Shown one piece after another: positions 273 to 62,303 of a stretch of 64,000 nt of DNA. The notes under the pieces were generated by a model. That model was given only the letters and a program-made list of their open reading frames with translations. It was not told the DNA's origin and did no database searches. The stretch covers positions 310,001-374,000 of the forward strand of contig JAUGWO010000102.1 in the NCBI GenBank assembly GCA_049724395.1. Direction: 5' to 3'. Every line of letters begins with the position of its first letter. Positions within the stretch are counted from its first letter, which is position 1. This DNA is from Spongospora subterranea f. sp. subterranea. Its lineage: Eukaryota. The translations under genes and the position numbers were made by a program.

Positions 273-414
273 TTTTCATCTCCGAAACAACGTAGGCCTT
301 GCAACGGATAGTTTTGAGGTCGTCATCATTTGTGTGAGATGCCGGCCTGGTGTTGGGCCGGTGGATCGTTTATGAGTACATCAGGCGAGTTCCCATTATT
401 GGACTATTTGATAT

Positions 415-6400: not shown

Positions 6401-9400
6401 AACTCTAGAGGCCGAGTACAGTTGCACAATCAAATTTGTGGATTCAGAGGTTGGCGAATTGAGGATTGATGTTCGAGGCGAAGTCAACCTACCAAATCCC
6501 ATTGGAGAAACCATCAAAGTGACATGCAAAGAAAATACACCTGTTGTCAAAGATATATTGCTGTCACTGGTCAATCCGAATCTCGAGAAAGCCATGATGC
6601 GTATCGATGGTGAGCGTAAATCCAAGGGTGGTGTTAGTTCAGTAATCAATCCTTTACGCGGTCCTCTTGCATATTCTGTTGATTGTTCATCGCCATTCAT
6701 CACTGTTTCTAAAACCTGCATTTTGACAGACAGGGTGCTTGGTTTGGCCCCCGCAGGTAAATAACGCGTTATCGTGTTTTAGCTTTTTTATCGAAATGCT
6801 GTTGAAGGGTCATCGAACAAAACTATTAACCAAAAATTAGAAGGATTGGATCCGTCAAAACAGGAGTTGAATCAACCGGGAGACAACGTGCTGCGACTTG
6901 TGTTTAAGGGCGGGCAACCTGGATTGTATCCAGCAGAAATTACTTTGCGATCTGAACATGATATTCGAATATATCACGTCGAATTCGCATCGCAATCTGA
7001 GGGAATGAAGGCGCATCTGGAATTCGACGTGGCTGCCGGGCAAACCTTACGTCAAAATATTCCTATTGTAAATAGTTCAGACAATGAATGGAGAATTACT
7101 GCAGAGGTGCGTTGCCCCCCCCCCCAAATGGCACATTTCACAAAACACTAAATTTTGGATCTGAAAAGTTGAAAGGGAGTGGATGGTCGGGTCCATCATC
7201 AATTGCGGTCCCAAGAAATTCAACTGGAGCGTATCCGTTAAGCTTCTCTCCGTTATGGATATGTGAATCAGAGGGTTTACTGCTGCTGGTTAATACCAAC
7301 ACGAAAGAAAGCTATTCGTACACTCTAAAAGGGCAAGGGAGAGATCCCTTACCTATCAAGGTCGTGACAATCAACTGCAACGCTAGAGAGAAATTTGAAC
7401 AGCTTTTTACGGTCGAAAATCGATCAAATGAGGTGATGTTTGACTTCTCATGCGCTGATTAAGTTCTGAAGTAATGTTTCAGGATTGTGTGTACCGTGTA
7501 GAATCCGACCTGCCATACATTCATGGAGACAGTACAATTTCAGTTCCCAGTAGATCCAAGAAAGACTATAAATTGTTAATGTCGCCACAAATGAGTGGAG
7601 TGTACAATGGATCAATAACATTCATATGCAAAGACGAACGATATCAATGGTTCGCCGTTGAAGTATGTATTGCTTTCTTCTTTGCACCAGTACGATAAGA
7701 CCTTTTGATAAAATAGGCTACAATTGGTCGTCCTTTGCCGGAATCAACGCTGAAGATTGAATGCCCACTCCGAGAAGCAGTGACGGCTGACTTAGTCGTC
7801 CAAAATCCATTGGATAAGAAAATATCATTTGACGTTAGCGTGGAAGGTGATTACCTCTTCTGCGACAATCAAGTCCAATTAGACCCGTGTTGTTCTGCGA
7901 CGTTTGTACTGTCGTATGTACCGTTGAAAGTAGGTCAAAGCTTGGGCCGCGTCAGATTTTTCAACAACATCGTTGGCGAGTTTTGGTACAATCTTGATCT
8001 CAAGTGCGAAATACCAGAACCAATGCGTCTCGATCCGCTTATATGTGAGGCTGGGTCTCAGGTATGAAATTGTAATCCATGATGTTCGACCACTTTAGCA
8101 TTTTTGCTGTTGTAGGCAGTTCACGAAGTGACATTAACCAATCCGTCTCAGTCTCGGATATCGATCGTTTCGGTTTCATCGGAACCCAAAAACTTTACGG
8201 TTCGCCCGTCGACCTTTCAGTTGAATCCTGGGCAGTCGTGTTTGGTTCATATTATCTACACGCCCTCTGTTCTGAACGAGGTGCAAAATGGTATCATCAC
8301 GTTTCAAGAAAATCAGGTAAGACTTCAAAATGTCGTTCTAACTTACATATTCAGCGGAGTCTTAGATTGGAGACTGGGTTTATATCGTATCAGGTATTGG
8401 CAAGCCACCGACTGCAATGCAGCCTATTCACCTACTTTCATCCCTCGGCCAAAGATCATCCAGTATTATTCAGTTTCGGAACCCATTTGATCGAGCATTA
8501 ATTGTTCGAATATCCCTGCATCAACGAGGCCACGATGCGTTCCGTCTATATTCTAGGCGAGAGTTGACCAGAATTACTGGTCAGACTCAGCTTCAGGTCC
8601 CATTTGTTTTCGTGCCTACTGCTCTATCTTGTTACAATGCAGAGGTCGTGATCGAAGCGTCTGAGGGGTTACGATGGGTATCCCTTATCGAGGAAATCAC
8701 TTTAACATCAGTGTTAAGAATTGCATTAGGTGTATCCGTTGATGGGGGAAGCCGAACTGCTGTCGTCGGAGCCGTTGAATTTTTTGTGCATTTCTCGGCA
8801 GCCGCTGAACAAAGACGTTGACTCTAATTCTACCCGGACTGACTCAATCTGAAATTGACAACAATGACTTTACGATCAAAGTTGAACACGTCACAACTGA
8901 ACCTTCTGGTGTCCCTCTCGAAATACTCTCTGACGTTATTCAAGCTAAAGAACAAACTGACAAACCAGTGATATTTGATAATGGTGCGGTGCAGACCGAG
9001 CTTACTCGAAGAAACTACTAACGTCTCATGTGCATAGGTGCAGGCTTCGTCTTCGAAGTAAATTTCAGGCCCTTCCGCACCCTTCATGTCGAGTCCTTAC
9101 TTTCCATTACCAAATCATCTGGTGGAAGATATTCCTTCAGGATGCGGTTTACGTCAACTGAAGCAGCTGTTGACGATGTTGTTCGAATAAGCGCTGGACT
9201 CAATCAAATTGCAAATGTCTCGTTCCGTTTATCTAACATTATCAATGGGAAATCTCAATTTGAGGCGCATTTCGCTCCTGATTCACCATATCAGTTATCT
9301 GTTCAGCCGACAAAGGGATTTCTCGAAGGACGCGATTCTCTCGGGACTCTTTTTACAATAAGTTTCGCCCCGAGTGAATACGGAAAAGCGATAGTGGGAA

Positions 9401-14164: not shown

Positions 14165-15052
14165 ATGTTCTGGGACTTTGATGTTCCAATAACGTTAGAT
14201 AAATCTGGTGCTTCACGAAATGCGTCTCCAGTGATCGATTCGCTCAGAACCTGTACGTAAAAACAATGGCACTTTTCCGTTTCCTGTCTAATTCGGGATT
14301 TTTATGTTCAGTTGGATATGGCGGCATTGTCCTTTCAGAATCAGTCACTGGTAAAGTTGTCAAGAAGTGCTCCTTTGATAGTCGACCCATAAGCCGACTG
14401 AAAAGTAGTTTCTCTCAAGCCACAGAGTTGGTCCAGAAGACTCGTCTAAATGTGATCCTGAGCGATAGTCAACAGATTCAGACGCTGTCATCGTCGAATG
14501 CCTGTATTCAGTCTTATGACATAATTGCCATCCAACCCACTACAGAGAAGCTCTTCTATCAAGCGTGCCAGACCATTGATTGCGACATCATCACATTTGA
14601 CTTATCAGACAGAATACCATTCATGTTGAAGTTTCCGGCAGTTAATTCAGCAATTGCTAGGGGGATATTTTTTGAAATATCTTATTCTTCTCTCATCTCT
14701 GATGCAGCTTCAAGGCACCACTATTTATCAAATTGTCTAAACATCGTCCGAGTTACCAAAGGGCGCAATCTTATTATCAGCTCCCACGCCGTTCAGGCAA
14801 TGCTTGTACGAGGTCCCTACGACGTCATGAATTTGTGTGCCCTTATTGGACTTAGCCAGTCCGAAGCCAAGGCTGCACTTGCCATTAATCCTCAAGCTGC
14901 ACTGGCTCATGCTCAGGTTCGTCGATCTGCTCAGGTATGCCGCTTGTCGTTGATTCTGCGTCCACACTGATTCTTATTTTTTTTAGGGTGTTTGCTTGGC
15001 ATCAAATATCGCCTCATTGCATCCAGAAAACGACGCATGGATCCTGTCGTGA
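14165..15052 (+). CDS. RPP30: RNase P/MRP subunit p30
   Basis: YDIIAIQPTTEKLFYQAC..DIITFD, AIARGIFFEISYS, KGRNLIISSHA..LVRGPYDVMNL. First exon MFWDFDVP at 14165, two short introns. Confidence 0.92.
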
Positions 15053-31988: not shown

Positions 31989-32125
31989 AAAAGACTTGAT
32001 CAAGAATCTGGAAAATAAATAATTATGAGTCTGTTTGATTGTTAGACATTCTCGCGTTCCCGTCCTATGACCACTCATAGTTATGATCAACCTATGCGTA
32101 CCTCATCGCACCTGTCGGTAATCAG

Positions 32126-35100
32126 ATGTCACAACCCATTGCTGATCGACATCGGGAAAAGTCGGCAAACAGGAATAAAGATGATGGGTACCAGCTACGC
32201 AAGGCGGCAGCTACAATTATATCCGAGGGTTCGTCTTCGCCAAACGCAGAAGCCTGGGATACCCTTATTCGCGGATTGAAAGCTTCCGAGCCAGCTATTC
32301 GACATTTCGCCATAATCAGCATTGATAAGAGTTTCTGCCCTGTTCCAGCCGAATCCGCTGTTGGACATCCGACAAGAAGAGAGATCACCCTACTTTTATC
32401 CGATATCGTGACCAATGATATCAGCGAGCAGAACCGTTCATTAGCCGCTGTTGTTATCGGTAGAATTGCTGGTTCCCTGGGGTTATCCATCCCCTCCATA
32501 GCCAAAGATGGCTTCTCAGTGTGCCTTCGTCATTTCCTGCTGCTACAGAGCGAGAGACACGTCGATGGCGCCACACGACGGTCGGGATATGAAACAGCTC
32601 GCTGCTATGCAATCTACGCTCTGACCAAGATGGTTGAGGTTCGGTCAGGGGGTTTGGGCCCTCGTTGATGACGTCCAACCCTGACTGATATGTGCTGTAG
32701 GATCGTATTGATATACCGACTGGAGAATGGGATCGCCTATCCCCAGAGATCATGGCGATATTAGAGACCCCTGAGCAGTCTCGAGATTACGACTGCCTTC
32801 GTGCGAACGCCATCATGTTCCTCTCGAGTTTGCCCTCAACCCTGCGTAATCGCCAACGAACTCAGCCGTTCTGGGTTCCGATTCGGCCGGTTGTCCATCG
32901 TCTGATCGCTGGCGCCGCCGGGCCCGACCATGTATTAACGGTGGCCGTTTCCCGATTCGTCTCGCAATGGTATGGGCGCGTCCCCGACGCTATCCTCGAC
33001 CGATTCCCGCTATACGATCAGCTATCGGGATATAGCGAGCTGCAATACAGCTTCCTGATGAATTCGGAGAAGGAGGGCGTCTCGATTGGGCGGACACAGC
33101 TGCGAGAGGATACGGGCGCCTGTGCCTATCTGGGCATTGTCGAACGCGACGACGTATTGTCCTTCATCAAGCGTTATAGCCGCCGAATGCAGATCGTCGA
33201 CGTTCTACCCGAGAAGTTCGACCTGACGTTCCAGGCCACCGGGATGATCAATTCGGAGCTGTTCTTCGACAATGGGAACATGAGGCGAACACTTCATCTG
33301 ACGAATCGATCGGCGAAACTGGCGCACCGATTCACGGTCCAGATCGTCCCGAGTCGGTTCTTTACAGTGAGTCCAGCGTTTGGCGAGATTCCACCACATT
33401 CGTCGATCCCGATTAACATCACGTTCGCCCGCGTGTTCCCGTTCGAGAAGGGCATCTCCCGCGGCTATCTCCGTCTACGCTCTTGGACCGGGTTCGCGTT
33501 CGAACGGATCGCGCTGCGCTTCTACAACGGCCCATTCCTGCAGATCGTCAACAGCACGGTGAATTTCGGTCCTTGTCCTATCGGGCGACGATTCACCCGG
33601 CGCCTGTTCATCAAGAACATCGGAATCAACCCGATTGTCTGCAGTATCGACCTCACACGATCTTCGCCCAACACCGGTCCCGAGGGCGAACCGGGTGAAA
33701 AACCACCCGATATCCCATCGACATCGCCCAACGAGTTCGACGTGTTTCCGAGATCGAACGCCATTGCCCCGTCGTCGATCGTCGGGTTCGACATCGTGTT
33801 CATCGCGAGGCGCGCCGATCGTGTCGAATCGCAGCTGCTGGTGAGCGGTGTCGGGCACGATGGCGTCCACGAGGTGCTGCTATCGGGATCGGGCGGATTC
33901 CCGATCAAGGTGCTGGAGTCGGTGATTGATATGGGCCCGTGTCTGCTCAACGACAACGCCGCCACCGCCATCAATATCTGCAACACGGCCCAATTCCCGA
34001 TCCTGGTCCAGTTCGACGCCACGATCGACGACCTGGTGATCCCGTCCGTGATCATCGCGCCCGGCCAGACCCGGACCGTCCCCGTGAACTGGTTTGCCAA
34101 CCGATCCGGCAGCATCGACGAGATCGTCTACATCCGCGCGCCGCCTTGCGATCCGCTCCAGATCGGGTTCGTGGCGTTCGTCGGGCCCGTGTTGACCACG
34201 CCGTTCCAGCACCTCGTTCGAATGCCGTTCGTGTCCGTTCACATGACACTTCAGACCGTTATCCCCGTCCACAATCACTCCCGATACGACGCCGAGTTCG
34301 TGATCGACGGACTCGACGGGTCCCCGTTCTACACGATCGCCGTCGACCCCGTCCGGCACGCCAGAGACCGCGAGTATTTCGCCAACGACTGCGCGGGTAA
34401 ACCGGCGACGAACAAGTTCAAGGAGGCGCTGTGTCAGAGCCGGGAGAAGCGCTATATTGTCAAGGCGCAATCGATGATATTCCTCCAGGTCGTGTTCTCG
34501 ACCCACAAACCCGGGTTTTTCGATCGCGAGTTCGTCGTGCGTATCTTGGCGCCGCGCGTATCACGATGGGCGCCATTCACCCTCCGCGCGGCCGCCACGC
34601 TCGACAACGAGAAGTTCCCGCTGAAGAAGCTCTTGCTGTTCTTCGGCGACGTCACCGTGTTCAAGTCGTCGGAGCTGACCCGGCTGCCGTCCAAGGACTA
34701 CGATGGCGCCATCGAGTCGCGCATGATCTACGGCGACACCTGGGAGGGAATCCCGTCGCGCAACGAGACGTTCGCGTTCCACTCGTCGGACGAATGGGGC
34801 TGGGTCGGGCGTCCGCTGCCCGACGTGGTCGTGGAGAACCTGTCGGCCCGTCCCCACAATTTCTCCATGTTGGTCACGTACCCGTTCCTGGGCGCCAACG
34901 CCCGTCATGGAATATGTGGCGCCTACGATCGCTTGGCCATTCCGAGCACGTTGACCGTCGACGATATCGATCATCTGTCGCCGCTCAACGGATTCATCAT
35001 CATTCGCGATAATTTCGCGAAAACCTCAATGTGCCAGCTGCACCTGCTGGCGACCCATCTCGTCGCCGTCGCCGATGCGCTAGCGCCATCCCGGCTGGTG

Positions 35101-38100
35101 TTCGCCACCGTCGACGTCGATATCGTATCGAGCCTGCCCTTCACGGTCGTCAACCGCAGTGGAATCCCGGTCTGGTTTCGACTGGCGATCCAGACCGACG
35201 GTCTGGCAAGCGGGGACGGGCCGCCAACGCTGGATCCAGCGTTGGACCACGAACCCCTGGTTCAGTCAATCCCCGACCCATCACCGTCCACCGAATCGGA
35301 TCGGCTGTTCTTCTACGATCATTCCTCAACGGCCAAGTGTTTAGGTCCATGGGAGCGCCGAACGATATTGCTGAAATTTCGCTCGGCTGTTCAGGGTCGA
35401 TTTATCGGTCGTCTGCAGGTGATTTACGATGATCCGTTGAATCCATCATCGCCATCGTCATCAACATCCCAATCTGGTCCATCGTCCACCCGATCCTCAT
35501 TCGTGTCGTATTTCGCCGATTTGATCGCCATCGCCGGCAAGCCCGACGTCTCCGCCAGCGTCGACGTCCTGGATTTCGGGAATTGCGGTGTCGGATCGTG
35601 CTCGGATCGTGACCTGGTCCTGTCGAACAGCTCGTCGGAAGACGTTCTGGTCGATCCCGTGATCAACGACCCATTCTCTCTATCGACCGGCGGCGGCGGT
35701 CGCCCCATTCGCATCGCGTCGCGATCGTCCACCACCATCGTCGTGTCGTTTCGTCCGACGATCACGGGGCGGTTCTGGGAGCGGATCCAGTTCGTCTGCG
35801 GCGACAGCGTCAGCGACGTGATCCTGTTCGGCGACGGCGGCGTCATGAGTCTGGTATCGCACCTTGGCCCAGGACGCCATCTCCCGCCCTCCCACGATCA
35901 TCATCACGTCGACGATAACGAGATCAATATGGGGGCGGTTCGCGTCTGTATCTCGTCCACACGTGTGTTCCGCCTGATCAACAACGGCACGATCGACATC
36001 GTCGTCAGCGACATCGTGGTGTCGGCCGACGACGGCCTATCGTACGTGATCTGCGACAACGATCTCGGGGAGAGCGGCGGTAACGACCTGCCCGTGTTCG
36101 GCCATGAACTGTTGGACGGGGCGATGGTCGATTGGGACGAGGTCGCCTATCAGGCCACCTATGCCGACGCCCTTCCCCAATCGCTTTCGACGGACGACGC
36201 CAGATTCCCCCGTGTTCTGCCACCTGGCGCCACCCTCCTCCTTCAGCTGTCGTTCTCGCGCTATCTGACCGGCGTGTTCCGGCCCACGCTCCAGGTCCAC
36301 ACGGCCAACCGATCGGCGATCGGGCGGTTCCTGTTCACACTGCGGTTCAACGTCCAGGACGTGATGGAGATCAACGAGAGCCGGCTGGATTTTGGGACGG
36401 TTCCGTGCTCGAAAACGGGGGAGGTGGCGATCTCGTTCCACAACGATTGCGCCCAGGCGGTGTCGTGGCGACTGGATTGCGTCGACACGATCGGGACGCA
36501 CGTCACCGACCGGACGCGTTTGCCCGTTCGCAAGGACGTGTTCACGGCCAGCCCGTCGTCGGGATCGCTGGCCGGCGGGGCCGATCAGCGAGTGACGATC
36601 CGGTTCACGAGCAATCTCCCCCATTGTCTCTGCACCGCCTTCGCCACTCTACAGACGTCCGATATCGGCCAGACCCGGGTCGAGCTGACGGCCGTCTGTG
36701 GGGCGCCGCGCATAGCGCCATCGGATCGGGAGATGGCGTTCGGCTGCATCAGTTTGGGGTCGAACAAGAGCAGGGTCCTGACCTTGTCCAATGACGGGGA
36801 ATTACCCGCCGCCTTCATCGTCAGGGTGTCGTCGAAACGGTTCCACGTGGTGCCGGTTCGCGGGCGTGATCGCCGGGCGATCGCGACAGGCGATCTGGGT
36901 CAAGTTCCAGCCGGCGGATTCGTCGGAGGTGCTAAGCGATCTGCGGGTGGAGTGGGGCGATCCCGATCGCATCGACCGGCGGTTCGACGTCGCCCTGAGC
37001 GGGTGCGGGGGCAATGCGCAGATCGCCGTCAAGGTGTCGTCGATTGATTTCGGCCTGGCGATGCGGGGGACGGCCACGACCCGCCCCTTGACCATCTATA
37101 ATTCGGGGACGGCCGAGGCCCTGGTCGAGATCGATCTCCCCGATCCATCGCTGTCGTGCGATTCGGGCCCCGTCTTCTTCGTCGAGCCGGCGTCGTCGCG
37201 CGATCTGCTGATCGTGTTCCGCCCGGCCACGGCCGTCGCGATCAACGCCACCGCCTTCGTCGTGTCCAAGGAATCGCCCGGCCAGGAGCGGATCCCGATC
37301 GCCGTTCGAGGTCGTGTGGGCGTCCCCTGCCTGGAGCCCGGCCCCGTCGACCTGATCAACGCCAACACTCTGAACATGGGGATCTGTATGGTCCGACGAC
37401 AGACGACCCGACAGTTCTTCGTCGACAACACAGGGAATATGGATGTGCCATTTCAGGTCGTCATCTACCGCTACCATTCGTCGTCGTCGACCAGCGCCGC
37501 CGCCGCCGCTCGTCACGACACCGACGATCACGCCGGTCCGGATCGCGTCCAGGTCAACGACGATGGCGCCGGCAATCCGGTCCAGACGGTCCGGTCGCAG
37601 TTCCCCCGATGGGAACCGCAGGACGCCCAATGGCCATCGCTCATCGATCATCTGGTCGTGGCCGAACCCGATCATTTCCAGTTCGAGCCCGTGTCCGGCG
37701 TGTTCGCCCGCGGTTCCCGCGTCCATTTCACGGCGCGGTTCGCCCCGCCCCGACCCGACCAGTTCCTGGACGTCCTGGTCCATATCGGGAACCCATCCAT
37801 CCCGCTGGCGTTCGTGGCGTCGGCGCTGTCGGACGAGCCGGCGATCGACATCGACATCCCCGAACGCGTTCTGGACTTCGGTCTGTGCCGGTGCCAGAAC
37901 ACGTTCAAACGGCGGTTCCGGGTGTTGAACAAGGGCAACATCCCCTATATCTATCACCTCGGGCCCGATATTCGCGAACCGCAATGGGCGATCTATCGCG
38001 ACGACTACGAGTCGGCACGATTGGCGTGGTCGGCCCATCTGCGATCGATCGGGTTCACGTTCGCCTATGGGGGGACCTGTCCACGACGATCGCACGACAA

Positions 38101-41100
38101 CGTCCTGGTCATGTTCAGCCCGACGTCGGCGGGGGAGGTCGTCGCCCGTGTTCGCGTCGTCTGCAGCGGCGGTTACGAGCAGATCGACCTGCGCGGGGTC
38201 GGGGGGATATCCCATCTCGACCTGGGTCGTCTTTCCGACTCCGACCAGCACCGCAACGGCGACGTGGTCGATTTCGGCCTGCGCCCGATCGGCCAAGAGA
38301 ACCACGTGACGTTGGTGCTGAGGAACGGCGGGGCGTTGCGATCGGGGTATCTGGTGCGGCGAACGATGCCCGAACAGTTCCGGGTGTTCCCGTTGAGCGG
38401 GCAGATCGAGGGCGGTGCCGAGACGCCGCTGCGAATTTCGTTCAGGGCGACGGGCTATGGCCTGGTCCAGTTCGACCTGGAGATCAAGGGGATCGACAAC
38501 ACGGTGTCGACCTGGAGGATCGTCGGGCGCGGCGGTAAGGGGTCGTTGGCGATCCACTACCTGGACGGGGCCGACCAGAACCTCAAGGGGATCGACTTCG
38601 GCCTGGTCAACGTCGGCAACGTCGTCGAGAAGTCGCTGGTCGTGCACAACGACGGCCAGGTCGATCTGCGATTGTGGGCCGAGTGCGATGACGGCGCCGC
38701 GTTCGCCATTCGTCTCAGTCATCCGCCCCAGTCCTACAAGACCAACGGCGATGTCGACGCGCTCCCGCGCCTCAAAGGATTCCATCGCGTGTCGACCCGA
38801 TCGCTGGGCGCGCTGCTGGCGCAATCGCGGTCGATCGAGGCGCTGATCCCGCCCAAACACCTGATCGTGATCGGAGTGGGATTGGCGGCGATCGCCCCGA
38901 GGAAGTACCAGGGCCTGTTGACCCTGTCGTCCGAGTTCAACTCGATGGGCGTCGCCCTGCGCGGACAGGGCGGGACGATCGCCGTCAACCACGTTGGCGA
39001 TCTGGCATTCGGTTCGGTCGGCGTCGATCACCAATACGAACGGTCGTTGACGATCACGAACACGGGGACGATATCGACCGTGGCGCGTCTGTCGTGGCAG
39101 ATTCCTGGATGGGCGGTCAACAACAGCTCGTCGACCATCGTCCTGACCGGACCGAACACTTCCCGATACGCCAAACTGTGGCGCCAGACGATCACCATGA
39201 TTTTAAGGCTCATACGAACCAGTAAATTGATGAACGGCGCCAGAACACTACAGGAGATCGTCGATCGTCAGTCGTCGTCGCCGCGGAAGTCGCCCGTCGC
39301 CATTAAAAACATGTCGTCGATAATGGACCCGTTATTGGTTCAGCTGGGGAGTGTCCAGGTCAGTGCCGATCAACACCAATCCAATATACGGGATGTGGAG
39401 TCGTTCATATCGCCGACCCATCCGCTGTTCGACACGGCCGTCGGTCTGAAGAACATGGGACACGAGACCGGTTTACGATTATCGCTATTACAGGATCGGA
39501 TTGAGAAACGGATCGTGTCGGAGACGATCGCGTCGTCGTCGTCGTCGTCATCGCCGATAACGGCGCTGCTGGCGTCGATCGGCCCGAACCTATCGGCAAT
39601 ACGCGGCGGTGTCTCGCGACACCCTCATCATGATCGCGATCCGATCGGGAAAGGTGCTCTGACCGTGATCCCATCGTCGATCGTGCTGGATATCGACCAG
39701 CCCATCACGGTCACGGTCGTGGCGTCGTTCCCCAGCGCCGGCGCGTTCGTCGGGTCGCTGATCGTGACGAGCGACGTCCTGGGCTGCGACCCGCATCCGA
39801 TCCGAATAACGGCCCAGGCGATGAGCGCCCGGCTCGTGATCAACGACGGCGGGCCGATATCGTTCGGGCGAATCTCGCTGGGAACGGTCGAGATCGCCAC
39901 ACGAGTCCTGACCAATAACGGTCTGTTGCCGATCCGGTTCACAGTTCGCCACCGGAACTTCGGTCTGACGATCGCCCCGTTGACCGGGTTCCTGGACGCC
40001 GACGAGAACGTCACGATGACGTTCTCATTCCGCCCCAGCGACGAAGACTGGCAACGATCCCCGATCATGATCGACACCGACAGCACCGACACGATCGAGC
40101 TGGCGTTCAACGGCGCCGGCGGCGTTCCCAAGCTACATCTCGCGTCGTTCGACCGATTTGATTTCGGTCGGTGTATGGCGGTACGTTGAACGCCGTTCGC
40201 CCGTCAGGTTTTGGTCGGGGAATCTCTGAACGGTTGTCGCACACAGGGGCGAATATCGAAGAAGGCGATACGATTGCTGAACATCGGCAACGCTCAACTA
40301 CCGATACTGAGGTGCCTCCTCGACCAGACCGTCGTCTTCAACAAGGGCTCGGCTTGGCCCACGACCCGCTTCGCCATCGACCCCGACGCCTTCTTCGACC
40401 TGAACGTCGAGTTCACGCCGCAGAGCGAGGACGTGTTCCGGGGGCGCGTCGTGATCGAGACCGACACGCGCGTCGTCCCGATCGAGCTGATGGGAACGGG
40501 GCGGGAGGCGCTGCTCACGTACCAGGCCCACAATATCGACCTGACCAACACCATCGTCGGGAACGTCTATCGACGGGAGCTGGTGGTCAACAACGTCAGC
40601 GATCTCGACTACCCGATCCAGATCACGATCGCGTCGGCGTCGTCGCCGGACCTGGTCCAGGATTTCGCCCTGGACGCGACCGAGATGACCTTACAGCCGT
40701 TCGAGCAGCGAAGTATTCAGTTGACCTATCGCGCCGCTCGTCAGGTAATTCCCCCGCGAAATCGCCCCCCGGTTCGAATTCACGGAATCTGATCCCGCGC
40801 GAAAACCAGATCGAATCGAGCGTCAATCTGCACATGTCGTCGATCTATTCCGAACACGATGTCGTGGTCCCCGTTGTATCCGGTACCGCCATTATCGCCA
40901 TCGATCAGGAGCAGGTCGAGTTCGGCCAGTTCCAGAAAGGGCACAGCTGCTCGCGCAGCGTCGTGATCCGCAATTCGGGCACGATCGCGGTCGCCTTCCG
41001 GATCCATTCGGCGCGGGATCCGGCCGTGCTCGATTTCTCCCTGTCCCGGTGGAAGGGCCTGCTCGTACCCGATCGGGACGTCGAGATCATCTTCAAGACG

Positions 41101-42885
41101 ACGCTGTCATCGCTGGGGTCGTTCCAGGACGAGCTGTGTCTTGAGACCCAGGTCGACGGGCAACGACATTACATTCACGTTCGAGGGCGTTGCGACACCC
41201 CCATAATCGATCCGTCCAAGTTCCAGCGCGTCGATTTCGGTAAAAACGATTCCGAAGTTCGTGGAATCGCGTCAATAATCAACGACCGGCGATCGGTGTC
41301 TGTTGTTCAGGGGATTGCCTAGTCGGGGAGACGGCCACACAATCGTTCGTGATCGATAACTCGGGCGGATATCCGTTGACCTATCGGATGAAGGCGATAT
41401 TCCCCATCAAGGTGATCCCATCGTCGGGGTCAGTCCAGGCGCTATCGCGACAGCGGTTCGTGGTGCAATGGGTCCCATCTGGCGGTTATGGTCTGCGATC
41501 GACGGTTAAGGCCCACACCAATATGGGCGTGTACGACATCAATATCAAAGGTGGGTCGAGGGGATCTCGTTTCAATCGAAAAAACGATCGTTCGATCTGA
41601 GCGGAATGATGTTCAGGTCGTGGAGCGTATCCCCGATTCACCATCTCCAACGCGTTCCTGGATTTCGGCGTCGGCGCCATTAAACGCGTCTATGAACAGC
41701 GGTTCAAACTGATCAATCGGGGGAAGGTCGGGATTCGGTTCTCGATACCGTATGGGAATGGGGGCGGCGGTGGAACAGGACAGATTGAGGGGAATGGCGA
41801 TAGTCCAGGACAGGGCAAGACCGGCACCGATCGGCGACCCGATGAAGTATCGGCCGGATATATCGTATCGCCAATGCGAGGGGCGTTGGCGGCCGGCGAG
41901 ACCGTTGTCGTCAAGGTCCGGTTCGAGCCCCGCGAATACCGGAAATACGTCGGGAACATCGTGGTTGAGAGCAAAGGGCGGTATCGGGAGGTGGTTCTGG
42001 TCGGGGCGGGCGGCGTCCTGAGATTGGATCACCCCGATCGGGTCGATATGGGCAATTGCCCATCGGGCTATTGGCGAACTCGCCCGTTATCGATATCGAA
42101 TACGGGTGATGTCCCGTTGACACTTCACATCGCTGGGATCAACCTTCAACACGGATTCGCTCTGATTCCAACACCAGAAACAGTCACACTTTCCTCGATG
42201 GAACATCAGGTCGGAAAACGAACAACTTTGCTGTTTTTCATTTCGATTTCCAAATTGTTTTCGAACAACCCATTTCCACTTGTTCGTGTAGATGATCTTG
42301 ATCCGATTACGTGTTGACCCGGGGTTCTCTGGGAAATTCGAGTTCGGTCTGGCGTTGGCCGCTCATGAACGAACATGGAAGATTTGTGTCAGCGGGAACG
42401 CCGTTAATCTGATCGACTCGTTCACCCATCTGACCGAGATCCTGATGCGATCGGACGCGGCAATCGTATCGGGCCCGGTCGCTCTACAGCAATGGCCCAA
42501 TGCGCTGGAGCCCGATCTGGTCATCGTTCCGCCCCCGAACCCGTATCTCGGTGGCGATCGCTCGCCCGAGGCGGCAGCGGTGGCGTCGGTCGTGAGGATG
42601 TTGGTGAACGGGTCTGCTGAGATGATGAATTCGGGGACGACGATCGCGACCACATTCCAGGACCGATTGGTGGAACATATCGAGGGCGGATCCGTTCGGC
42701 CAGAGCGGGACTGTTCAGGTCACGATCGTGTTCTGGAACAGGTCCTGGTGTGGAGTTGCGCCATCACCCGACCCGAGATATCCACGATCGTCTCGGTCAG
42801 GGAGCCCGATCTGGTCAACATTATCCACGATCAGGTGATCGCCGCCCCGCCTGTATTCCTCCCCGAATTAACATATTCCCCATAA
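32126..42885 (+). CDS. Giant (~3,300+ aa) protein with helical N-terminus and a long array of ASH/Ig-like (Hydin/CFAP65-like) domains
   Basis: ORFs 32126-32668, 32752-37047, 36791-40189 and later exons. More than 15 recurring [VIL]DFG...L.N.G...F.V.P.SG units. Apparent frameshift near 36860. Not assignable to a named gene from sequence alone. Confidence 0.75.
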
Positions 42886-49559: not shown

Positions 49560-49860
49560 CTGAAGCCTGCATCGGTGTCAGCTGCGCTTGGGATGAGCCG
49601 AAGGGAAACAGCGGTTGCTGTAAAACTCAATCGGGTTATTTGTCCTATTAGCGATACACTCTCCTGAAGCAATCTGCCGACTGATGTTCCAGTGTTTTGA
49701 ATGAGTTGTTTCAATCCACATCCGTCTGAAATGGCCAATGAACTGATCGAGCTTCTGCCCTTCACTAGAATCATCTTTGAATGCAGAAGTCGGTTCGGGG
49801 AGAGAGGAATATAGCCAAACCCCTGCTCCATGATTTCAACGTGAGGAATCATCGTTCGTT
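49560..49860 (-). mobile_element. Mutator-like (MULE) transposase C-terminal fragment
   Basis: A minus frame not listed in the ORF track (~49736-49578) reads HFRRMWIETTHSKHWNIS...NRTNNPIEFY..RCFPSAHP, matching the MULE YF..TW...WN...RTNN..E...HP signature. Confidence 0.7.
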
Positions 49861-50540
49861 AACACGTCCAGGTTTCCCGGGATCATTAACACGTTGATCA
49901 GAGAAATATGGATCCGGAGCTGTATAAGCCTGCGGCCGGTTCGCCTGGTTCCAATGGACCGCCCAACCAGGGTGACCAGGGAGATTTTATCTCCAAATAA
50001 AATTACGCCTGGTCGTTTTTATTGGAAATGAAATTCGCGTTTCCCGAGGGCTGTCGTCAACGCCCCCCATGCGCAGCTTACCAGCATCTGGAGAACATTC
50101 TGCCAGGCGGCGCAGGCCTGCTTCGCTTGACGTCTCTGTCGGCTGCTCTGCCAATGCCCAACATCGTGTCCGGGTAATGTCTAGACTCCCTAGGGATCAA
50201 ATCAGGGTTGGTCAGATCGTCCACACGACACCGTCCTTGCGATAAATGCGATTCGTTGACACAGTGCCGATGCCACTCCCCATCTATCGAACTCGTTCCA
50301 ATACAACGCCGTTTATGGATACCGTAATCCAGGATTTTTACTCTACCTGGCGTTCTAATTTCAAAATGAGAATATGTCATCTACTTCGTGTTTCCCTACT
50401 TACCATTAGTATAAAATCGACGACCACCGGCAGCGACACACCAATAAATCGCATTCAAACGAAACGGTCAAAGTTAGCATCTTCATAGGTTATATTGCGG
50501 TAAGGCTACTAGAAAAGCAACGAGCTCTGTCCCAGATGCC

Positions 50541-52777
50541 TTAGCGTATAGCAATGTGATCGCAAAGCTTCAGAAGCGTATGACATTTAGAAAAGCATAT
50601 GTCGTCGAGCAACTTCAATGCGTCAGATTCGCTAAATCCCTCCGTGAGCAAATCGTCAATTGCATCGTATAGCGGTTGTCGTCTAGGAAAAAACTTCCCT
50701 TCCGCAGAGCTCTTGGCACCTCTCCATTTCTTGCCAGGACGCGACTCCAGCTCTTCTATCGGCGGTACAACGACGTTGTCCATGGAAATACCGCCGTATT
50801 TCCATTCCTTCCATCCATCGTGCACCGTCGTCACAGATCTGTTCATTCGGAACGGGACAACAACAGCCTGGTCAGGTACAATGACAACCGGCTCGATGAT
50901 ATAATCGGCATTGCCATTTGTGTCAAAATGAGGTGATTCGGAATGACGACTCGCGACAGCGACAGCATCTGCGCTCGCAGCCGATCCAACCTGTGATTAC
51001 CATCAATATTTCTCTTAGTATGGTTTTCAGAAATCATGCAATCAATTCGCCCATACCTGTGTCGACATACAATTTCCCGGTCGCCATCACCTGAAGACAT
51101 TCGTTGCGGAGCATTAGCAATGTTTTGTTCATGTCCTCGTTCACTTGCTGGATCTTCTGGTCGAACTTCTGGTCAAGACAAGAATTTGATCGCGAATGAA
51201 CAGCGCTCGCATGAACCAGCTCGCATAGATGACCGCGATCTTGCCGGACAGCTCAGCAGCAAAGGTCGTGAACGCCTCTGAAGAGAATATCGGATGTTGC
51301 CATATTGCATGAGCTGAATGATCCTCATCAGCCATTAGAATAGCAGAGGATGACTGTTCGCATGTGGTCTAGCAACCTGAGAAAGCTTTGTCCTGCAATC
51401 TCGGTCTTTCTAACGCCGAACGATGACAACGATGTAGCCTGTTGTTGCGACGCCTCCAGACCGGGAAACACCAACTTTCGAAGATGTTCCGGCGGGTCCA
51501 GCGGAGCTCGTGGCAGGTAATACTGTTTGGGATCGGCAGAGACCTCTGCCGAAACCCGAGCGCATTCCCATGGGATGACGTTGTCTGTGTCGACCCCGCC
51601 AGGCGAACGTACTTGCCAGTGGCCATTGTTGTCAACAGAGGCTTCACTTGCACCCAGATTCTCGGCCATTGACGCGCCGCCCTTTCGACCCATCTGCGGT
51701 TTCGTTGTGATGGCCAGACCGAACGAAGCTTGAGCGGCCTTGATGGCTTCATACTGTTTGATGTATGTCATCGGCTTATCTGAATGGATACCATTCGGCA
51801 AAACGAATAAATTGTATCAACTGCTTGCTTCAGAAAGATCAGCCAAGGATCGCCCCGAACTTGAAATTGAAAAAAGAAATACAAAGACAAGCTTTCGAAA
51901 GGGCACAAACTCACTGATGAATGACGCATCAACGCATTCTGTTGCACTTTTCCAAACTGGTTTTTCTTCGATCTTTGCCAAACAGTACGCAGAAGATGAG
52001 CGCCACTGACACCTTCGCCGGGGAAGAATTTATGTCCAATCTCCGACAACTTAAGTCGTCGAAGATTGTCACCTCTGCAGGTCAGAGCGAAAGATAGCAG
52101 ATAATCTGTCCGCTGCTTCAGACCCTCCTCGCTGTCCAAGTCCCAACAGTGCTTGGCAAGTTTGCCAAACTCATGGGCGGAAATTTCATCGGCTAAAGTC
52201 CCAATTCCACGATCTATAAAAAATTGCGGTTTCACGATCCATTACGTCCTTCTTGGAGCTTCTGAGGAATTTTTTGAAACTCGGAATCTTTTGTTAACAA
52301 TCAATTTGGGTTATTTAATGGGAATCTATTGATAACAATCAATTTGGATTATATGGGAAGGCGTGCCGGTGTCGGAAATTCAGGAGGACACCGCCCCAGC
52401 GTATGCTGCAGTCTTCAAAGATCCATACCAGCATTGACGTATCCATCAAGAATATGCAAAACCCAAATGATCAGGGCGGCAGTTCTCCGGTTCAGACGTG
52501 CTGCTGAGCGCAATGGACGAGCGTTTCCGGCCACGCTTATATGGCCAGCGATCTTTCAATTCGTGTAAAAAAAGCAGAAACTTGCTTTCATTGAATAAAT
52601 CATTGTGATATCTTTTGCAAACGTTCCAGTCAAGGAATTATTTCTGTTTTTCGTCGTCTGAGGACTATGCTCGCCGACCTGATATTGAAAACGATGTGCG
52701 GCTTGCAATTCTTCTAACCGTAGGTCAGTTTGTTTCCAGCGCTGTTCCGCTAGAGACGAGACGACGGTCGGATTCAT
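50541..52777 (-). mobile_element. Degenerate CryptonF-type tyrosine-recombinase element (Ndc10-like YR plus GCR1_C domain)
   Basis: YVNAGMDL*RLQHTLG, FIDRGIGTLAD, LLSFALTCRGDNLRRLKLSEI, SKKNQFGK..ALMRH..LCPF, KPQMGRKGGASMAE..GASE..NGHW, YYLPRAPLDPPEHLRKLVFP. C-terminal MNRSVTTVHDGWKEWKYG..PPIEELE..GKKWR..FFPRRQPLYDAI corresponds to GCR1_C. Stops and frameshifts present. Confidence 0.85.
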
Positions 52778-53014
52778 TGTGATGATGTGAAAATGGAGGA
52801 GCACTATCACGAGAGAACCTTGTTGAATACCCAGCGGTAAACAATGCCGGTTCAGCAGACCTACATTTTGTCCCGGAGGCGGTTTTCACCCGGTGAATGG
52901 GAAGACAAATGAAGTTGCCCGAACAATGTCCTGTTAATATGTATTTGGCGGCGATGACCTCTGGCGAATGGCGGCGCCGGCGGCATGGAGAGGGTTCCAG
53001 CGTGCCAGAATGCC

Positions 53015-53300
53015 AACAGGAGGGAATGTGCAACCGTTGAATTCGTCAACAATCAGGAGATCGAACTTGGCATCATCATACCCATCCCACCATTGTGAAA
53101 CCGTTGGTATCTCGAACACCCGTCGTAGCGCGTCGAAGAACGGTGTCTTCCCCATATTGTGCTCCATCCCCAAGTACAGCTGCTTCTGCTTCCGTGCCCG
53201 CGTTTGAACCAGGTTCGCGTTCACCCACTCGATGACAGCCCGAACAGGTCTCGGCTGCGAATAGCGCTGGTCTGTTTCACAATGCGGCCACGTCGCGAAC
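53015..53300 (-). other. Endogenous CRESS ssDNA virus Rep fragment (SF3 helicase), copy 1
   Basis: EWVNANLVQTRARKQKQLYLGMEHNMGKTPFFDALRRVFEIPTVSQWWDGYDDAKFDLLIVDEFNG contains a decayed Walker A, the WWDGY motif and Walker B. Confidence 0.82.
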
Positions 53301-53660
53301 AAATGGGTGAACGCGGGAACAGAAGCAGTTGTAATTGCAAACGGAGCCCAATTTGGGGAAGACTGCTTTGTTCAACGCGCTACGGCGGTAATCGCGGGTG
53401 TTTGAACTAAACTACCGACGGCAGCACAATGGTGGGATGGGTATGATGACGCCAAGTTCGATTTTTTGATGATTGACGAATTCAACGAATGCACATTCCC
53501 TCCTGTCGTGCAGCTCTGGAGGGTTCGATACACTTAAAGACAACGTGGCACGCAGCGCCTATGCAAATCAGTCAGTTTAATTGTGATCATGTCGTCGAAC
53601 AGCGGCCATGCAAAGGGCTTTCGCAGCGGTTCCTGGTTGTTGATTTCGGTGACTATTGCC
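53301..53660 (+). other. Endogenous CRESS Rep fragment, copy 2 (inverted, pseudogenised)
   Basis: KWVNA..QKQL*LQTEPNLGKTALFNALRR*SRVFE..PTAAQWWDGYDDAKFDFLMIDEFNE, then across frameshifts LIVIMSSN (motif C) and LSQRFLVVDF (arginine-finger region). Confidence 0.8.
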
Positions 53661-54009
53661 CCCCCCCCAAATCAAGTGGCGAAGCGATGGGTTTATATTT
53701 AGAATTCTGCGAAAGAAACACTCTGCAATACTTAAACCAGGTTTGTATAAAGTAATGAGTTATAAAATATGGAAAACTATAAGTCACCCCACTCTCTGTA
53801 AATCCAAGTATTTGGCGATTGTACATTACACTGAACAACATGCCCAAACATTGCCCGCCCTTTCTGTGTTTTGTTGTTTGTTAATTCCATCCCCATCGTG
53901 TGAGATCGCTTTTTTTTTGCGAGCACAATATGGAGATCACTGAGCTTCCATCCCCGATTCGGTCCATTCAAACGTCCAACAAAGTACTACTCCACAGTAA
54001 AATCACAGC

Positions 54010-54730
54010 TGGTGTCGATTGAACGGGGTTATGGACTCGCATTCATTTTTAGCAACACAGCAATACAACGCTCGAGGATCGCCAAAGCATTGTAGCTGAA
54101 TCACACACAGGTTGCACAATCATCGGCATTTCTTGGCCTAGCTTTGGCCGATCGATTACAGACCGGGCGTTTCATATTCCAGAACGACGGGAAGTGTTTC
54201 AAAAAATCAAGTCTGCTGATGTTTCGAAAGAAGAGAACGCTGAATCAGGGCTAACGGTTTCAGAAAGTATTTGTCGTGAAAGCAGGTCGTGATTATGGTT
54301 GAGTCGGCGTACAAATAGGAGACAATGATTTTACCAACTTTTCAGGACACAATTCGGGCCGACTGACTCGAACCGCTCGATTCGATAACGGAGGCGATCA
54401 AGACCCATATTTTAACCAAGAGAAGCAATTCGTGGGAGAAAATCAAACCAAATGGACAGTAAAACAAATATGGCTTCAAATTTAGAACGTGCAGTAGATT
54501 TCGTCAACAGCCGCGTTCGATGATATTCGGAACCGAACGCGATTACGAGAGCGGGCATGGGTAGACCACTTCCTAAGCACCATACAGCAGGAACAGGCAC
54601 GATTATAACAACATTGACAGACCAGGAAACACTTGAAGCTCATGAATTTCGATCCTACTATTGCTATTTTGGTAGAAATTATGAAAAAACGTTTGCGATT
54701 GCAACGCCAACAGTACGAGCAATGGACAAA
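54010..54730 (+). mobile_element. Possible Tc1/mariner transposase remnant
   Basis: Fragmentary motifs in the expected order across frames: RLNGVMDS, GRFIFQNDG, a D-S-N-(P)-L-D-like stretch near 54365, TIAILVEIMKKRL...QWT. Very decayed. Confidence 0.35.
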
Positions 54731-54849
54731 TTTAACGATCAATCGAAACGGTCACAAACTGCTGATATATCTATTGAGCAGGTGTCTTTCCCGTCGTTTC
54801 CGCTATGATAATAAATAATACATTTGCCGTTAATTCATGTTGAAATCTC

Positions 54850-55290
54850 TGAATCTTCCTGAGGCAAAGGTCTGATCAACTGCCCCGAATATTCGCATCG
54901 GTTCATCCCTTCCGATATATGTCTGCACCAACTGGCTCCACTCCATTTGTTGACTTTTCACCTTCAAATCCTTTCAGTACCGGAAATTTACTGTGTCAGA
55001 GACGGTGTCGATTTACCCATTCACTCAGATCAGAAACATCCGATATCGAGACGGTGAGCGCGTTTAGCCGACGTTCTTCGTATTCGCCATCCGTATCGTC
55101 CAGTTCCGATTCACAGAAATCATCGAAATCGATATCGTTATCAGATGCCTCACCGGTGTTGTCCATGGTCATCAGGTGCAGATCATATCCGACCTGATCT
55201 GCAGGTGTAGTAATATCAGTGTCGGCGATGGCTTCCTGATCCGAATCAGAAGGGCTGGTCGTGTCCTGGTGCCCATCCAGGTCGTCCATA
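54850..55290 (-). pseudogene. Acidic ORF remnant of unknown origin, preceded by a CT/GA-rich tract (55390-55500)
   Basis: MDDLDGHQD...DFDDFCESELDDTDGEYEE ORF that ends in stops and frameshifts. No family recognised. Confidence 0.3.
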
Positions 55291-55913
55291 TTCTGATATC
55301 GACCCAATTGTTGTTTTATCGGGTATATTGGTTTTGGCGATTCCCTTTCTGGGTTCTGACTGTACAAAGGAGGTCCAATTATCCCCCACGTCCTTCCTCG
55401 TTCTCTTGTTCCTTTCTCTCTCTTGTGTTTCCCCACATCTTCTCTCTCTCTCTTTCTCTTGTGATTCCTTCCCCACACCTCCCTCACCCCACTCCTGCCT
55501 TGCCACACCTTGTCTGCTGGAACATCGTTTGCTGTTGACATCTCTATGATACTTTGTCCTCCGTCTACATTCTTCGATCTTGATAACTGACTAACAATTC
55601 ATACGACCGTTAAGTCATCATCTTGTTGTATTAAATATCCAGAATGGGGGCGGGATGCCTTATGGAAAAATTCTAATGAAAACCATAATTCTTCAGGGGG
55701 CGCCGCCGGGATTCAGTTGTTTTCGGAAGGATCGTTTAGACTTATGCACTTTGGAAAATTGATACTATGGTATGTTATAATATATGCTCTGGATTGTATT
55801 AACATAATATAGGTCACCTTGAAGGATTAAATATACAATAAAACAGCAGACAATAATACGTTGATATCTAAAACAGATATTACCCGGCGACAGCGTCCTC
55901 AGATTTACACAGC

Positions 55914-58156
55914 TTAGTCTTGATAGGTACAGCGGTTTTCAGCATCTGAGCAATCGTCCGAACGTTGACTGTGACGCCTGAAGGGTCCAGAGGAGCTTGT
56001 ATCCTTGGCCCAAACTGCCTCGCTGCCACAAGGAAACCGTTGTCAGGAGCGAGAGCATCGTCAACTTGACTAACACATGCTGACGTAAACGCTGAGATTG
56101 TGCTTCATATCTGGAGCAATACCGATGGCTTTGCATCGGTTGCCCCAAAACCTGCCATAATATTTAAGTCGATCGAGCGAATTACAAAGCACATTGAGCA
56201 CCTTTGGTCCATAAGCAATACGCCCGTGCATATGATGGGAATTGAGGCTCGCATCGCTTCCGAAGTTGCTCCTAGGCCGCCATGTATAACGACACAATCA
56301 GCACGTTCGAACAGCTTGTTGAACGGGGCACCTCGGGCTTGGAACACAATGTTTTTGGATATAAGCTCGTCAAGCTGAGCTTGAGACCTTGAGCACAGCG
56401 TTTGCATGATACTGTCGCCGAGAAGAGAAACAATTCTGGGCTTCCTTTGACATTGTTCAGCCAGTCGGATCACAATCTTAGTGATGTCTTCTCTCGGAAT
56501 TGGCCTGAAAGCAATAAGAATAAACATTAACACATAATCAACTGATTGACACAAACATTGATGAGAATCCGATGACAACCACAGGACAGGAGTCGGCTTT
56601 AGCTTTATCCAGAAACGAGACCAGGTTAGGCTCTAGTTCAACGACGTCGGACCTATTGTTGTCGGTATACATTAAGGTCGATCAAAACTGACTAGGAAAA
56701 CACTTACGTCAGGTATATGAAATCAGTAAGTACAACCGAGGAAGGCCAATCATTAGGACGGCCTCCAAACGCAACTTCGTTGATGGGAACCACAATTGGC
56801 GACGACTGCTCCAAAATGTGATTCCACGATTTACTTGTAGGCGCTAGGCCTCGTCTCCTTCTCAACGCTGTTAATGTAGGATAGTCTAGATACGATTTCA
56901 GGGTGCCAATGAACCCGTGGGAGAGGATTGTGTCCTCGATCATTAACGGAATAGCATTCTGGCTTAGACTCTCCAACGGAGGATATTGGGATGACGGTAT
57001 CACGGTAGGCTGTAGTATGAAACCGAGCATGGGAATATTGAGCTTCTCGGATAGTATCATCGCAATAGATGCCATTGTAAATCTGGATGCGAAAATAATG
57101 ATTGGGTAAAATACATGAAGCGATTGAGAACGTTTACCCGTATATGATAGCTGAAGGCTGTAGCAATTCTGCCCACCAGAAAACTATGGGCTCCGATGTG
57201 AAGAATTCGGCTTCTGTCCTAGCTAGGATCATGGTTTGAATCATTACTGATCTGGAATGTAAGGCCCAACGGAAAAAATCGCGAGAGACCTTTGCGCTTG
57301 TGTCACCTCCAGAGGGCCGGAAACGGATACCGCCTCGGGAAAGCTTTCTAAAACACAGAGATATATGAGCAAAGTCAAGAACGCGAATTAGTGGTGATCA
57401 CCTGGAGTGAGACATGATGAAGTCTTTATAGGCCAATTCCGTGCAAATCGTCACTAGCCAGTTGCGTTGTTCTGCTAATCCGATAGCCAAGGCGACGAAC
57501 GGTTGAACATCTCCACGAGTGCCTCTTGTGATGATCATCACATGTTTATCGAACCGGCTCACGTCGTTGTATGGCGATTCCATGGGGGCAGGCCAACCAA
57601 CGGGAGTGCGAATCACGTTGATGTGCAACTCGGTTGGGACGTTCAACGACTTCTTAACCATAAAATCCCCGTTATCGAGCTGGAGCAATAACGAACGGAA
57701 CGGGCGCTTGACTAGGTCGCCTAGTCGAATAGAAGTTCTGCCAACCCGATACCAGCTGGACATTACATCCCTAATGAACACATGCATTTAAGCGTGCTAA
57801 TGCCTATTGAGCGTCTAGTCTCACCAGCTGTAGATTTGAATGTCAATCTCATCGGATCGAGCCAATCCGGAAAGATTAGCGAAGGAATTGAAAACAAGAC
57901 TGTTGAATGGCTTTAGAATTTCGCCTTCATCCAGATACAATTGTTTGTCTCCGACGCTGATGCGTATCCAGAGTGTTCGGCCGAACAGATTGGCGAAGGC
58001 ATTTCCCGGCAAATGAATGACGCGGTTGATGCAGATTAGACAATTATCATCAGACCTGTCTTCCTCTTCTGTGAACTTATAGGACATTCGTCCAGCTGCA
58101 TGGATTTGGGCAGTAATATCGGCGCTGATCGATCGTTCTAGGACGTCGTGGTCCAT
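55914..58156 (-). CDS. Sterol 3-beta-glucosyltransferase-like (GT1, Glyco_transf_28 N-domain), multi-exon; 5' end may extend to ~58629
   Basis: IITRGTRGDVQPFVALAIGL, RPNDWPSSVVLTDF, PFNKLFERADCVVIHGGLGATSEAMRASIPII...DQRFWG. Confidence 0.85.
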
Positions 58157-61447: not shown

Positions 61448-62303
61448 TTATTTAGAAAATTCGAAATCGGTCATCAATGGTACATGATCAGAGCCATATT
61501 TGTGAATGACCCGACGAAACAAATCGGGCCCTGGGATGTCATTCGTGAAATGCAGTTGATTCACGTTGAGTCCAGCAGAATGCAAAACGTAATCGAGTCT
61601 GAACGATTTGTGTTTTGGGGAGATCCAAGTCGCTGTGGGACACGATCGATATGCGTCATGAAGAGTTGACATTTGCGGGATCAGATTCGGTAATCTGTCC
61701 GGGGTGGCGTTGAAATCGCCACACCAGATGATACGACTGGTTCGCCGGCGACGGGTTTCGACGAGATCGGTGACCGCTTGCGCCTGCTGTCGACCAACTC
61801 TACCATATCCTTTCCAGCTCAGGTGAACGTGTGCGATGATCAGGTGATCATCGGTCGAATCCGCTCCTTGACATGTCATGATTTGCCCAGCACTGCCTTC
61901 GCCGCTCCAAACGTGGTTCGAGACGTGAACATCGCTTAGCATTGCCGACCGTTTCACCATCATGATCGTACCGTGATCGATTGGCGCAGTCGTTGGGCAA
62001 TTACCAGATAGCTCTGATATATGATATAGGTTGGCGAACATGGATCTCAGATGGCATAGCTCATTAGCCTGATAATCGCTGATAAGAACCGTTTTTACAA
62101 ACGTCAATCCTTCGGATCATCACCTGCACTTCCTGCAGACAGACGATGTCGGCGTCAGATGACTGAATTGTGCTATGAATACGGGCGCGTCGCAATTCGC
62201 CAGAAAGGAGCTCGGAACGATCTCGAATATTGGGGTAAAACGAGGGAGTGCACCAGACTTCTGCTAAAATATTATGTGTGAAAAGGCGGAATCGCCTGTT
62301 CAT
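61448..62303 (-). CDS. Endonuclease/exonuclease/phosphatase (CCR4/nocturnin-like) protein
   Basis: FTHNILA, ADIVCLQEV, HVHL, WCGDFNATP, LDYVLHS, GSDHVPL. One intron near 62067-62123. Start approximate. Confidence 0.9.

Follow-up and report, generated by a model that had tools for sequence, protein, structure and literature searches.

The DNA that we analysed (hereafter the window) is 64,000 nucleotides long, and its positions 52943-53519 hold two inverted, head-to-head, truncated copies of the SF3-helicase part of a CRESS-type Rep. Arm A (52943..53300, minus strand) extends from the linker Trp to the Lys-Gly loop region (PLHAAGAAIRQRSSPP) and lies within P0001, a stop-to-stop frame of 145 codons (52934-53371, minus strand) that reads ...TWPHCETDQRYSQPRPVRAVIEWVNANLVQTRARKQKQLYLGMEHNMGKTPFFDALRRVFEIPTVSQWWDGYDDAKFDLLIVDEFNGCTFPPVGILARWNPLHAAGAAIRQRSSPPNTY. 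Translated from the minus strand, arm A is a single open frame (WVNANLVQTRARKQKQLYLGMEHNMGKT...WWDGYDDAKFDLLIVDEF) containing, in this order, the linker Trp, WVNANL, KQKQLY, Walker A (GMEHNMGKT), WWDGY, Walker B (IVDEF) and the Lys-Gly loop. The first ~24 residues of P0001 are the antisense of arm B and not Rep; the portion that derives from Rep lies between the conserved linker Trp (at about 53293) and 52943, and arm A ends just before motif C, being cut at 52941. Its Met codons are found only inside the P-loop, with no start codon before it. When P0001 was compared by tblastn with 63 viral loci (described below), it aligned through residue 142 or 144 on eight of them, indicating that arm A includes the Lys-Gly loop region.

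P0001 was aligned with 26 homologues (alignment A1). The signature common to its members is W-x-N-x-N, R, KQxQL, GKT, aromatic-aromatic-D-x-Y and DEF, and W49, N53, R58, Q64, K75 and F111 are invariant. Walker A is present in both arms (NMGKT in arm A, NLGKT in arm B), with the invariant K75 preceded by a glycine (G74) found in at least 90 % of the A1 rows. The same is true of Walker B (LLIVDEF in arm A, FLMIDEF in arm B), in which D109 and E110 are each found in at least 90 % of the rows, next to the invariant F111. A profile of the 26 homologues, P0001 being left out, matched arm A with an E-value of 6.5e-29 over profile positions 185-277 of 364. Of all 2841 stop-to-stop pieces of at least 12 aa in the window, this independent profile matched only arm A and two pieces of arm B (53406-53534, E=1.7e-6, and a Walker A piece at 53335-53388, E=0.086). 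The SF3-helicase motifs read in the initial annotation (GKT and WWDGY, followed by IVDEF in arm A and MIDEF in arm B) are in the sequence, and the match lies far outside what chance would give.

Arm B (53304..53519, plus strand) is a decayed, inverted, partial duplicate of the core of arm A (53227->53005). In a gapped DNA alignment the two arms share 172 of 210 bases (82 %), and the inverted-repeat matches between them comprise 94 nt at 87 % and 75 nt at 79 %. Compared with arm A, 22+1 nt are missing from arm B after WVNA, insertions of 9, 5, 1 and 1 nt are present, and the Tyr codon of KQKQLY is replaced by TAA. Its motifs (WVNA, EQKQL, NLGKT, WWDGY and MIDEF, starting at about 53304) are spread across shifting frames. 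Arm A itself is free of stops over 119 codons, at a divergence between the arms of 16-18 %. The arms are separated by a single-copy spacer of 76 nt (53228..53303, minus strand), which corresponds to the Rep linker of arm A (TWPHCETDQRYSQPRPVRAVIE) and has no DNA likeness to arm B. Many phmmer alignments begin at query residue 25-28, i.e. at the linker Trp, and the spacing from the linker to WxNxN is colinear in A1. The letters TWPHCE (53293-53276) were considered as a possible HUH motif I and rejected, as they lie in the spacer and are colinear with the linker Trp of the relatives, about 20 residues before WxNxN.

The DNA likeness between the arms spans 53005-53227 on one side and 53304-53519 on the other, and it ends abruptly at 53005/53519. 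The continuation of arm A beyond this boundary is still Rep-like, a pattern that a simple duplication of the whole length does not explain. On the other side, the stretch beyond arm B (53520..53660, plus strand) continues the frame of arm B after one stop (53535-53537) and reads RQRGTQ...IVIMSSN...QRF. The initial annotation had listed SSN and QRF among the helicase motifs of the second copy. The letters are indeed there, but the signal was not confirmed: when the stop was read as X, the alignment extended colinearly to motif C with a gain of only 2.2 bits (from 24.7 to 26.9), and the QRF letters, a candidate arginine finger, fell outside any significant profile alignment. The stretch also has no DNA likeness to the continuation of arm A (local score 16, shuffle mean 15.5). 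Because the likeness stops at 53005/53519 and the gain is so small, SSN and QRF may be chance letters in flanking DNA. Adjoining this stretch, at the right edge, is a run of nine C (53660..53668, plus strand), the length of which varies between sequencing runs.

The proposal that the helicase is of the CRESS Rep type was borne out by the relatives of P0001. A phmmer search of 1.84 billion cluster representatives gave 322 matches at E<=1e-3 (best 1.3e-13), the match region being typically residues 180-300 of proteins of 330-480 aa. Among the 40 best matches, 26 have an HUH domain of the Gemini_AL1 family N-terminal to the helicase, none passed Viral_Rep, and one (P0039) is an unrelated ankyrin protein. 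Ten top matches are on short contigs (1.1-5.6 kb). The best identities of P0001 to Reps are 42-49 %, with 49 % as the maximum. Compared with the PDB, the family profile matched the geminivirus Rep nuclease (1l2m, 1.5e-25; 6q1m, 2e-19) and Rep helicases (7lar, of circovirus type, 1.5e-14; 8xms, 5.4e-10). Parvovirus NS1, AAV Rep and papillomavirus E1 ranked behind these CRESS Reps.

Used alone against Pfam, PHROGs and PDB sequences, P0001 returned nothing useful, and a word-based search of longer proteins with P0001 found none. In the ESM Atlas the match was to DUF5906, a family of generic SF3 type, which we take as a lead only. An AlphaFold model of P0001, which is a truncated domain, had a mean pLDDT of 68.9, and Foldseek ranked Vientovirus and PCV2 Rep first at values that are not significant (best E 0.07). 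Among the solved CRESS Rep helicases (PCV2 8xms, Vientovirus FB 9pqj/9pqq, and 7lar), 7lar and 8xms are the top helicase matches by sequence profile; these proteins also come first in the fold search, yet their match to the P0001 model is not significant.

The lead-in KQKQLY had been said to resemble that of a CRESS lineage, and it is in fact the commonest variant among 216 aligned relatives (35/216). Exact WWDGY occurs in 13 of them. In the P-loop, Asn where Gly is usual is the majority state of the group (109 relatives, vs 54 with Gly, out of the 216), so the Walker A variant of arm A is native rather than a product of decay. Several of the nearest Reps (P0002, P0009, P0013, P0015 and P0026) have Pro/Ser-rich N-terminal extensions of 90-190 residues before HUH motif I. 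The contigs that encode them barely exceed the ORF. Free CRESS viruses do not usually look like this, and the sequences may represent transcripts or eukaryotic insertions.

Further relatives were found by pattern scans of IMG/VR, which yielded 63 contigs of 2.0-6.5 kb (L001-L063). P0001 is 26-42 % identical to these loci over 63-101 residues (tblastn), and all 63 have a Rep ORF that matches the profile, in most of them over nearly its whole length. A search of metagenomes gave 21 matching contigs of 1.5-4.9 kb, with 29-41 % identity; a metagenome scan with P0009 as the query gave nothing. We also inspected 56 second ORFs on the IMG/VR loci, a set that excludes four ORFs running off the contig end, L025, and L001 and L002, which were scanned separately. 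Of these, 52 match Gemini_coat and/or TNV_CP (satellite tobacco necrosis virus coat); three had no match and one is an unrelated DUF. L001 and L002 have the same type of capsid and, in these two contigs that were examined, a stem-loop with TAATATTAC lies immediately upstream of Rep. Cruciviruses pair a tombusvirus-type capsid with a CRESS Rep. No such capsid, nor one of any family other than Gemini_coat/TNV_CP, was found among the second ORFs scanned in the relatives, which leaves the earlier suggestion of a crucivirus association without support.

The capsid gene lies on the strand opposite to Rep in some of these genomes (e.g. L001-L003, L030-L057) and on the same strand in others (e.g. L004, L006-L020, L027, L028). 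Six contigs (L007, L008, L016, L039, L052 and L059) have two Rep ORFs. Some of them are apparent head-to-tail repeats of a ~2.9-kb genome, while others pair two different Reps, which suggests concatemers or mis-assembled related genomes.

The gemini-like (Repensiviricetes-type) Reps of L001-L063 have in common with the fossil WxNxN...R..KQKQL, xxNxGKT, aromatic-aromatic-D-x-Y and DEF. These relatives are complete, with a Gemini_AL1 nuclease joined to the helicase, a Gemini_coat/STNV-type capsid and a stem-loop with TAATATTAC, whereas the window lacks those other parts. No HUH remnant was detected in the 64 kb with 155 homologues (tblastn) or with the full-length profile, and the capsids of two relatives (L001 and L002) gave no tblastn match in the window below E=1, in agreement with the initial annotation, which had seen neither an HUH domain nor a capsid. 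With up to one mismatch, the origin nonamer TAATATTAC has 13 sites in the window (9.65 expected), none of them within 1.5 kb of the locus. A third Rep piece, at 49590-49793 (minus strand), was indicated by two weak tblastn matches and a 23-aa BLASTP match, but was rejected because its profile score was -2.2 bits and 169 of 1000 shuffles scored as well. The locus is a fragment of an HUH-SF3 Rep gene and not a whole member of the CRESS Reps. Lacking a nuclease domain, a start codon, motif C and an arginine finger, arm A could presumably not work as a helicase.

Trees built on 91 helicase columns were poorly resolved, and the fossil fell in no well-supported clade. Its nearest rows were P0003, P0156 (in the cluster of P0009) and P0010, with SH-aLRT values of 80-86, no starred clade and identities of at most 43 % over the 91 columns; these proteins are encoded on short contigs. 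With about 90 informative residues, the fossil is too diverged and too short for the donor lineage to be named. Since its identity to any Rep is at most 49 % and no supported clade includes it, it ties no virus group firmly to a host, contrary to what had been hoped for an orphan group in the initial annotation. CRESS Reps can be chimeric between their nuclease and helicase halves and, the nuclease half being missing here, the term 'gemini-like' refers to the neighbours of the helicase only.

We then looked at the chromosomal setting by comparing the contigs of four public runs (X1-X4) over 50500-56500. The word depth was 170-917 over a repeat at 50500-52941 and 31 (X1) or 60 (X2) in the single-copy flank, and the Rep stretch was at single-copy depth (27.9 vs 31 for the flank in X1). 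The breakpoint between the high-copy repeat and the single-copy Rep DNA is at 52941..52942, where the depth falls from 170-900 to ~28-60 and where loose ends are found in X1-X4. It is bridged without differences by an X1 contig of 846 nt. A second contig, of 14974 nt, comes from X2, which has another organism label and belongs to another study; it spans 52808-56500 and beyond, i.e. the breakpoint, both arms and the right flank, with 13 substitutions and 10 gaps relative to the window over 3.7 kb. At the C run, the X1 contigs are interrupted between 53653, where they stop, and 53660, where they begin again, and X2 is one base shorter at 53659. As far as contigs (and not raw reads) show, the locus is chromosomal and continuous with host DNA. 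The bridging contigs and the single-copy depth exclude, to that extent, a contaminant or a misjoin, against which the initial annotation had cautioned. Other copies of the repeat run past 52941 with a different sequence, and this loose-end sequence is absent from the window; this indicates that the repeat copy and arm A are both truncated at 52941.

The repeat (50544..52941, minus strand) is a decayed copy of a CryptonF-type transposon that is multi-copy in the genome, as indicated by Pfam domains and depth. It contains two NDC10_II tyrosine-recombinase-like pieces in different frames of the minus strand (51331-51816 and 51771-52241; Pfam 6.2e-7 and 6.4e-10), followed by a GCR1_C DNA-binding domain (50544-50996; 2.1e-15). 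This order matches the layout given for CryptonF, a tyrosine recombinase with a C-terminal GCR1_C, in PMC3212892, where such elements are reported from fungi and four oomycetes. CryptonF-type copies are abundant (6-30x the single-copy word depth), with variants that are 90-95 % alike. In other copies a different stretch of 61 nt replaces 52221-52355; the window copy carries a direct repeat of 32 nt there (52283-52352).

To the right of the locus (53900-56500, minus strand) lies a transcribed, spliced gene with two GT-AG introns of 50-55 nt (54960-55014 and 56150-56199). A frame of 200 codons in this gene (54996-55598) is acidic and of low complexity and has no Pfam match. RNA-type contigs reach a depth of ~350 at 55700-56500; the RNA-type runs have no cover over 53113-53514, which is not evidence of silence. 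The window as a whole is eukaryotic, with exons for HYDIN/CFAP65-type (flagellar) Ig domains at 412-4810 and 32701-42317 and the RNase P p30 subunit at 14203-14970; it contained no tRNA or Rfam match. From the flagellar genes and the CryptonF-type element, the host would be a zoosporic fungus or an oomycete, a lineage on which an ESM Atlas look-up of the p30 subunit was uninformative. The two plus-strand HYDIN/CFAP65-like regions differ in GC content (44-49 % for 412-6764, 53-65 % for 32087-42885), and the GC-rich one has open frames of 1448 and 1135 codons. The pair may represent paralogues that differ in age, or else one region may be in decay or of foreign origin. An endonuclease/exonuclease/phosphatase domain at 61448-62116 (minus strand; 3.2e-12) is most likely the AP-endonuclease of a LINE-type retrotransposon.

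Taken together, we consider the locus to be a non-functional endogenous remnant of the Rep gene of a CRESS-DNA virus, of which the helicase half is left in two inverted pieces (probability about 0.85). The fossil likely does nothing now. Viral DNA bearing Rep would first have been joined into the chromosome. A fold-back or template switch during repair or replication may then have generated an inverted copy of 220 nt, with the 76-nt spacer left in between. Such an event would give the layout seen here, in which a long original is followed by a spacer and by a shorter inverted copy that starts a little inside the original. A later rearrangement linked to the transposon would have removed motif C and the C-terminus of arm A.

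A different origin of the two arms, as distinct but related viral copies or rearranged units of a concatemer that were joined head to head at entry, appears unlikely. The differences between the arms (31 over 189 ungapped sites) lean to third codon positions (10/5/16 for positions 1/2/3; chi-square p=0.03), as if they had arisen under selection in a virus. Together with the 119 stop-free codons of arm A, the skew hints, weakly, at some past purifying selection, in the virus or after integration, which is a point against the main reading, and it keeps alive the idea that the arms diverged partly as viral genes. The likeness is also confined to the most conserved part, the Walker A-Walker B core, as might be seen with two separate Reps. 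However, arm B begins and ends within the span of arm A, only arm A has the linker and a Rep-like continuation, the boundary of the likeness is abrupt and not graded, and only 189 sites were compared.

It is more doubtful still that the Rep piece derives from a cellular mobile element or a plasmid, comparable to the geminivirus-like transposon of truffle, or that it was cargo of the Crypton. The piece abuts a multi-copy CryptonF-type element, geminivirus-like transposons do exist in fungi (PMC3198968), and the nearest rows in the tree (P0003, P0010 and P0156) are not among the sampled viral contigs. Against this, the depth of the Rep stretch is that of single-copy DNA, 6-30x below that of the Crypton, the other Crypton copies continue beyond 52941 with unrelated sequence, and the wider Rep family is found on small contigs with capsid genes.

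We find it very improbable that arm A is an exapted host exon or a gene under selection. Its 145-codon open frame and the depletion of second codon positions among the differences between the arms would fit such a role, but its only Met codons are those of the P-loop, the HUH domain, motif C and arginine finger are missing, and the first ~24 codons of the frame are nothing but the antisense of arm B. Finally, an assembly artefact, or a contaminant viral contig misjoined to host DNA, deserves almost no credence: nothing was found in its favour except that the contigs of one run break at the poly-C run (53654-53659), while the 14974-nt contig reads through from the transposon across both arms into the host flank, the depth equals that of the single-copy flank, and the copies are broken, unlike those of a live virus.

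Returning to the endogenous viral remnant, the two arms are predicted to form an imperfect hairpin (stem of ~215 bp, loop of 76 nt, -317 kcal/mol, z=-19.9). One could imagine that the inverted arms are transcribed by read-through from the upstream minus-strand gene, giving a hairpin RNA that would be diced into small RNAs directed against a still-circulating gemini-like CRESS virus. This would amount to a heritable antiviral memory in a zoosporic microbe, and it would link the uncultured KQKQLY clade of Reps (P0003/P0009/P0010) to a host for the first time, but we give this scenario only a slender chance.

Descriptions of Rep fossils go back to 2011 and cover protists, fungi, plants and animals, and host assignment has already drawn on them. 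Liu et al. (2011) reported Rep-like insertions from at least 35 species, among them Entamoeba, Giardia and Blastocystis as well as a diatom, together with geminivirus-like transposons of truffle (PMC3198968). On the basis of such insertions, Kinsella et al. (2020) assigned CRESS families to Entamoeba and Giardia (PMC7493932), and a 2026 paper on an oomycete CRESS virus refers to insertions of Rep and CP in the genomes of several oomycetes (PMC13499601). The family names that go with the Repensiviricetes type (Geminiviridae, Genomoviridae and Geplanaviridae; PMC13499601) are background and not a result of our trees, which point to no single family within the class. Like the endogenous Reps described by Liu et al. 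and Kinsella et al., the present fossil is fragmentary and interrupted and lies in nuclear DNA, such insertions being often near transposons. It differs from them in consisting of the helicase half only, in its inverted partial duplication with a 76-nt spacer, and in being cut by a CryptonF-type element. The only unusual feature of the locus is the inverted partial duplication, the transcript of which would fold into a long hairpin.

The fossil raises no new question. It is one further indication that a flagellum-bearing microbe of fungus-like or oomycete-like type was once infected by gemini-like CRESS-DNA viruses, or that these at least reached its nuclei, and it provides a clean, small example of how a viral relic may be rearranged, by a fold-back duplication and then by truncation through a transposon.
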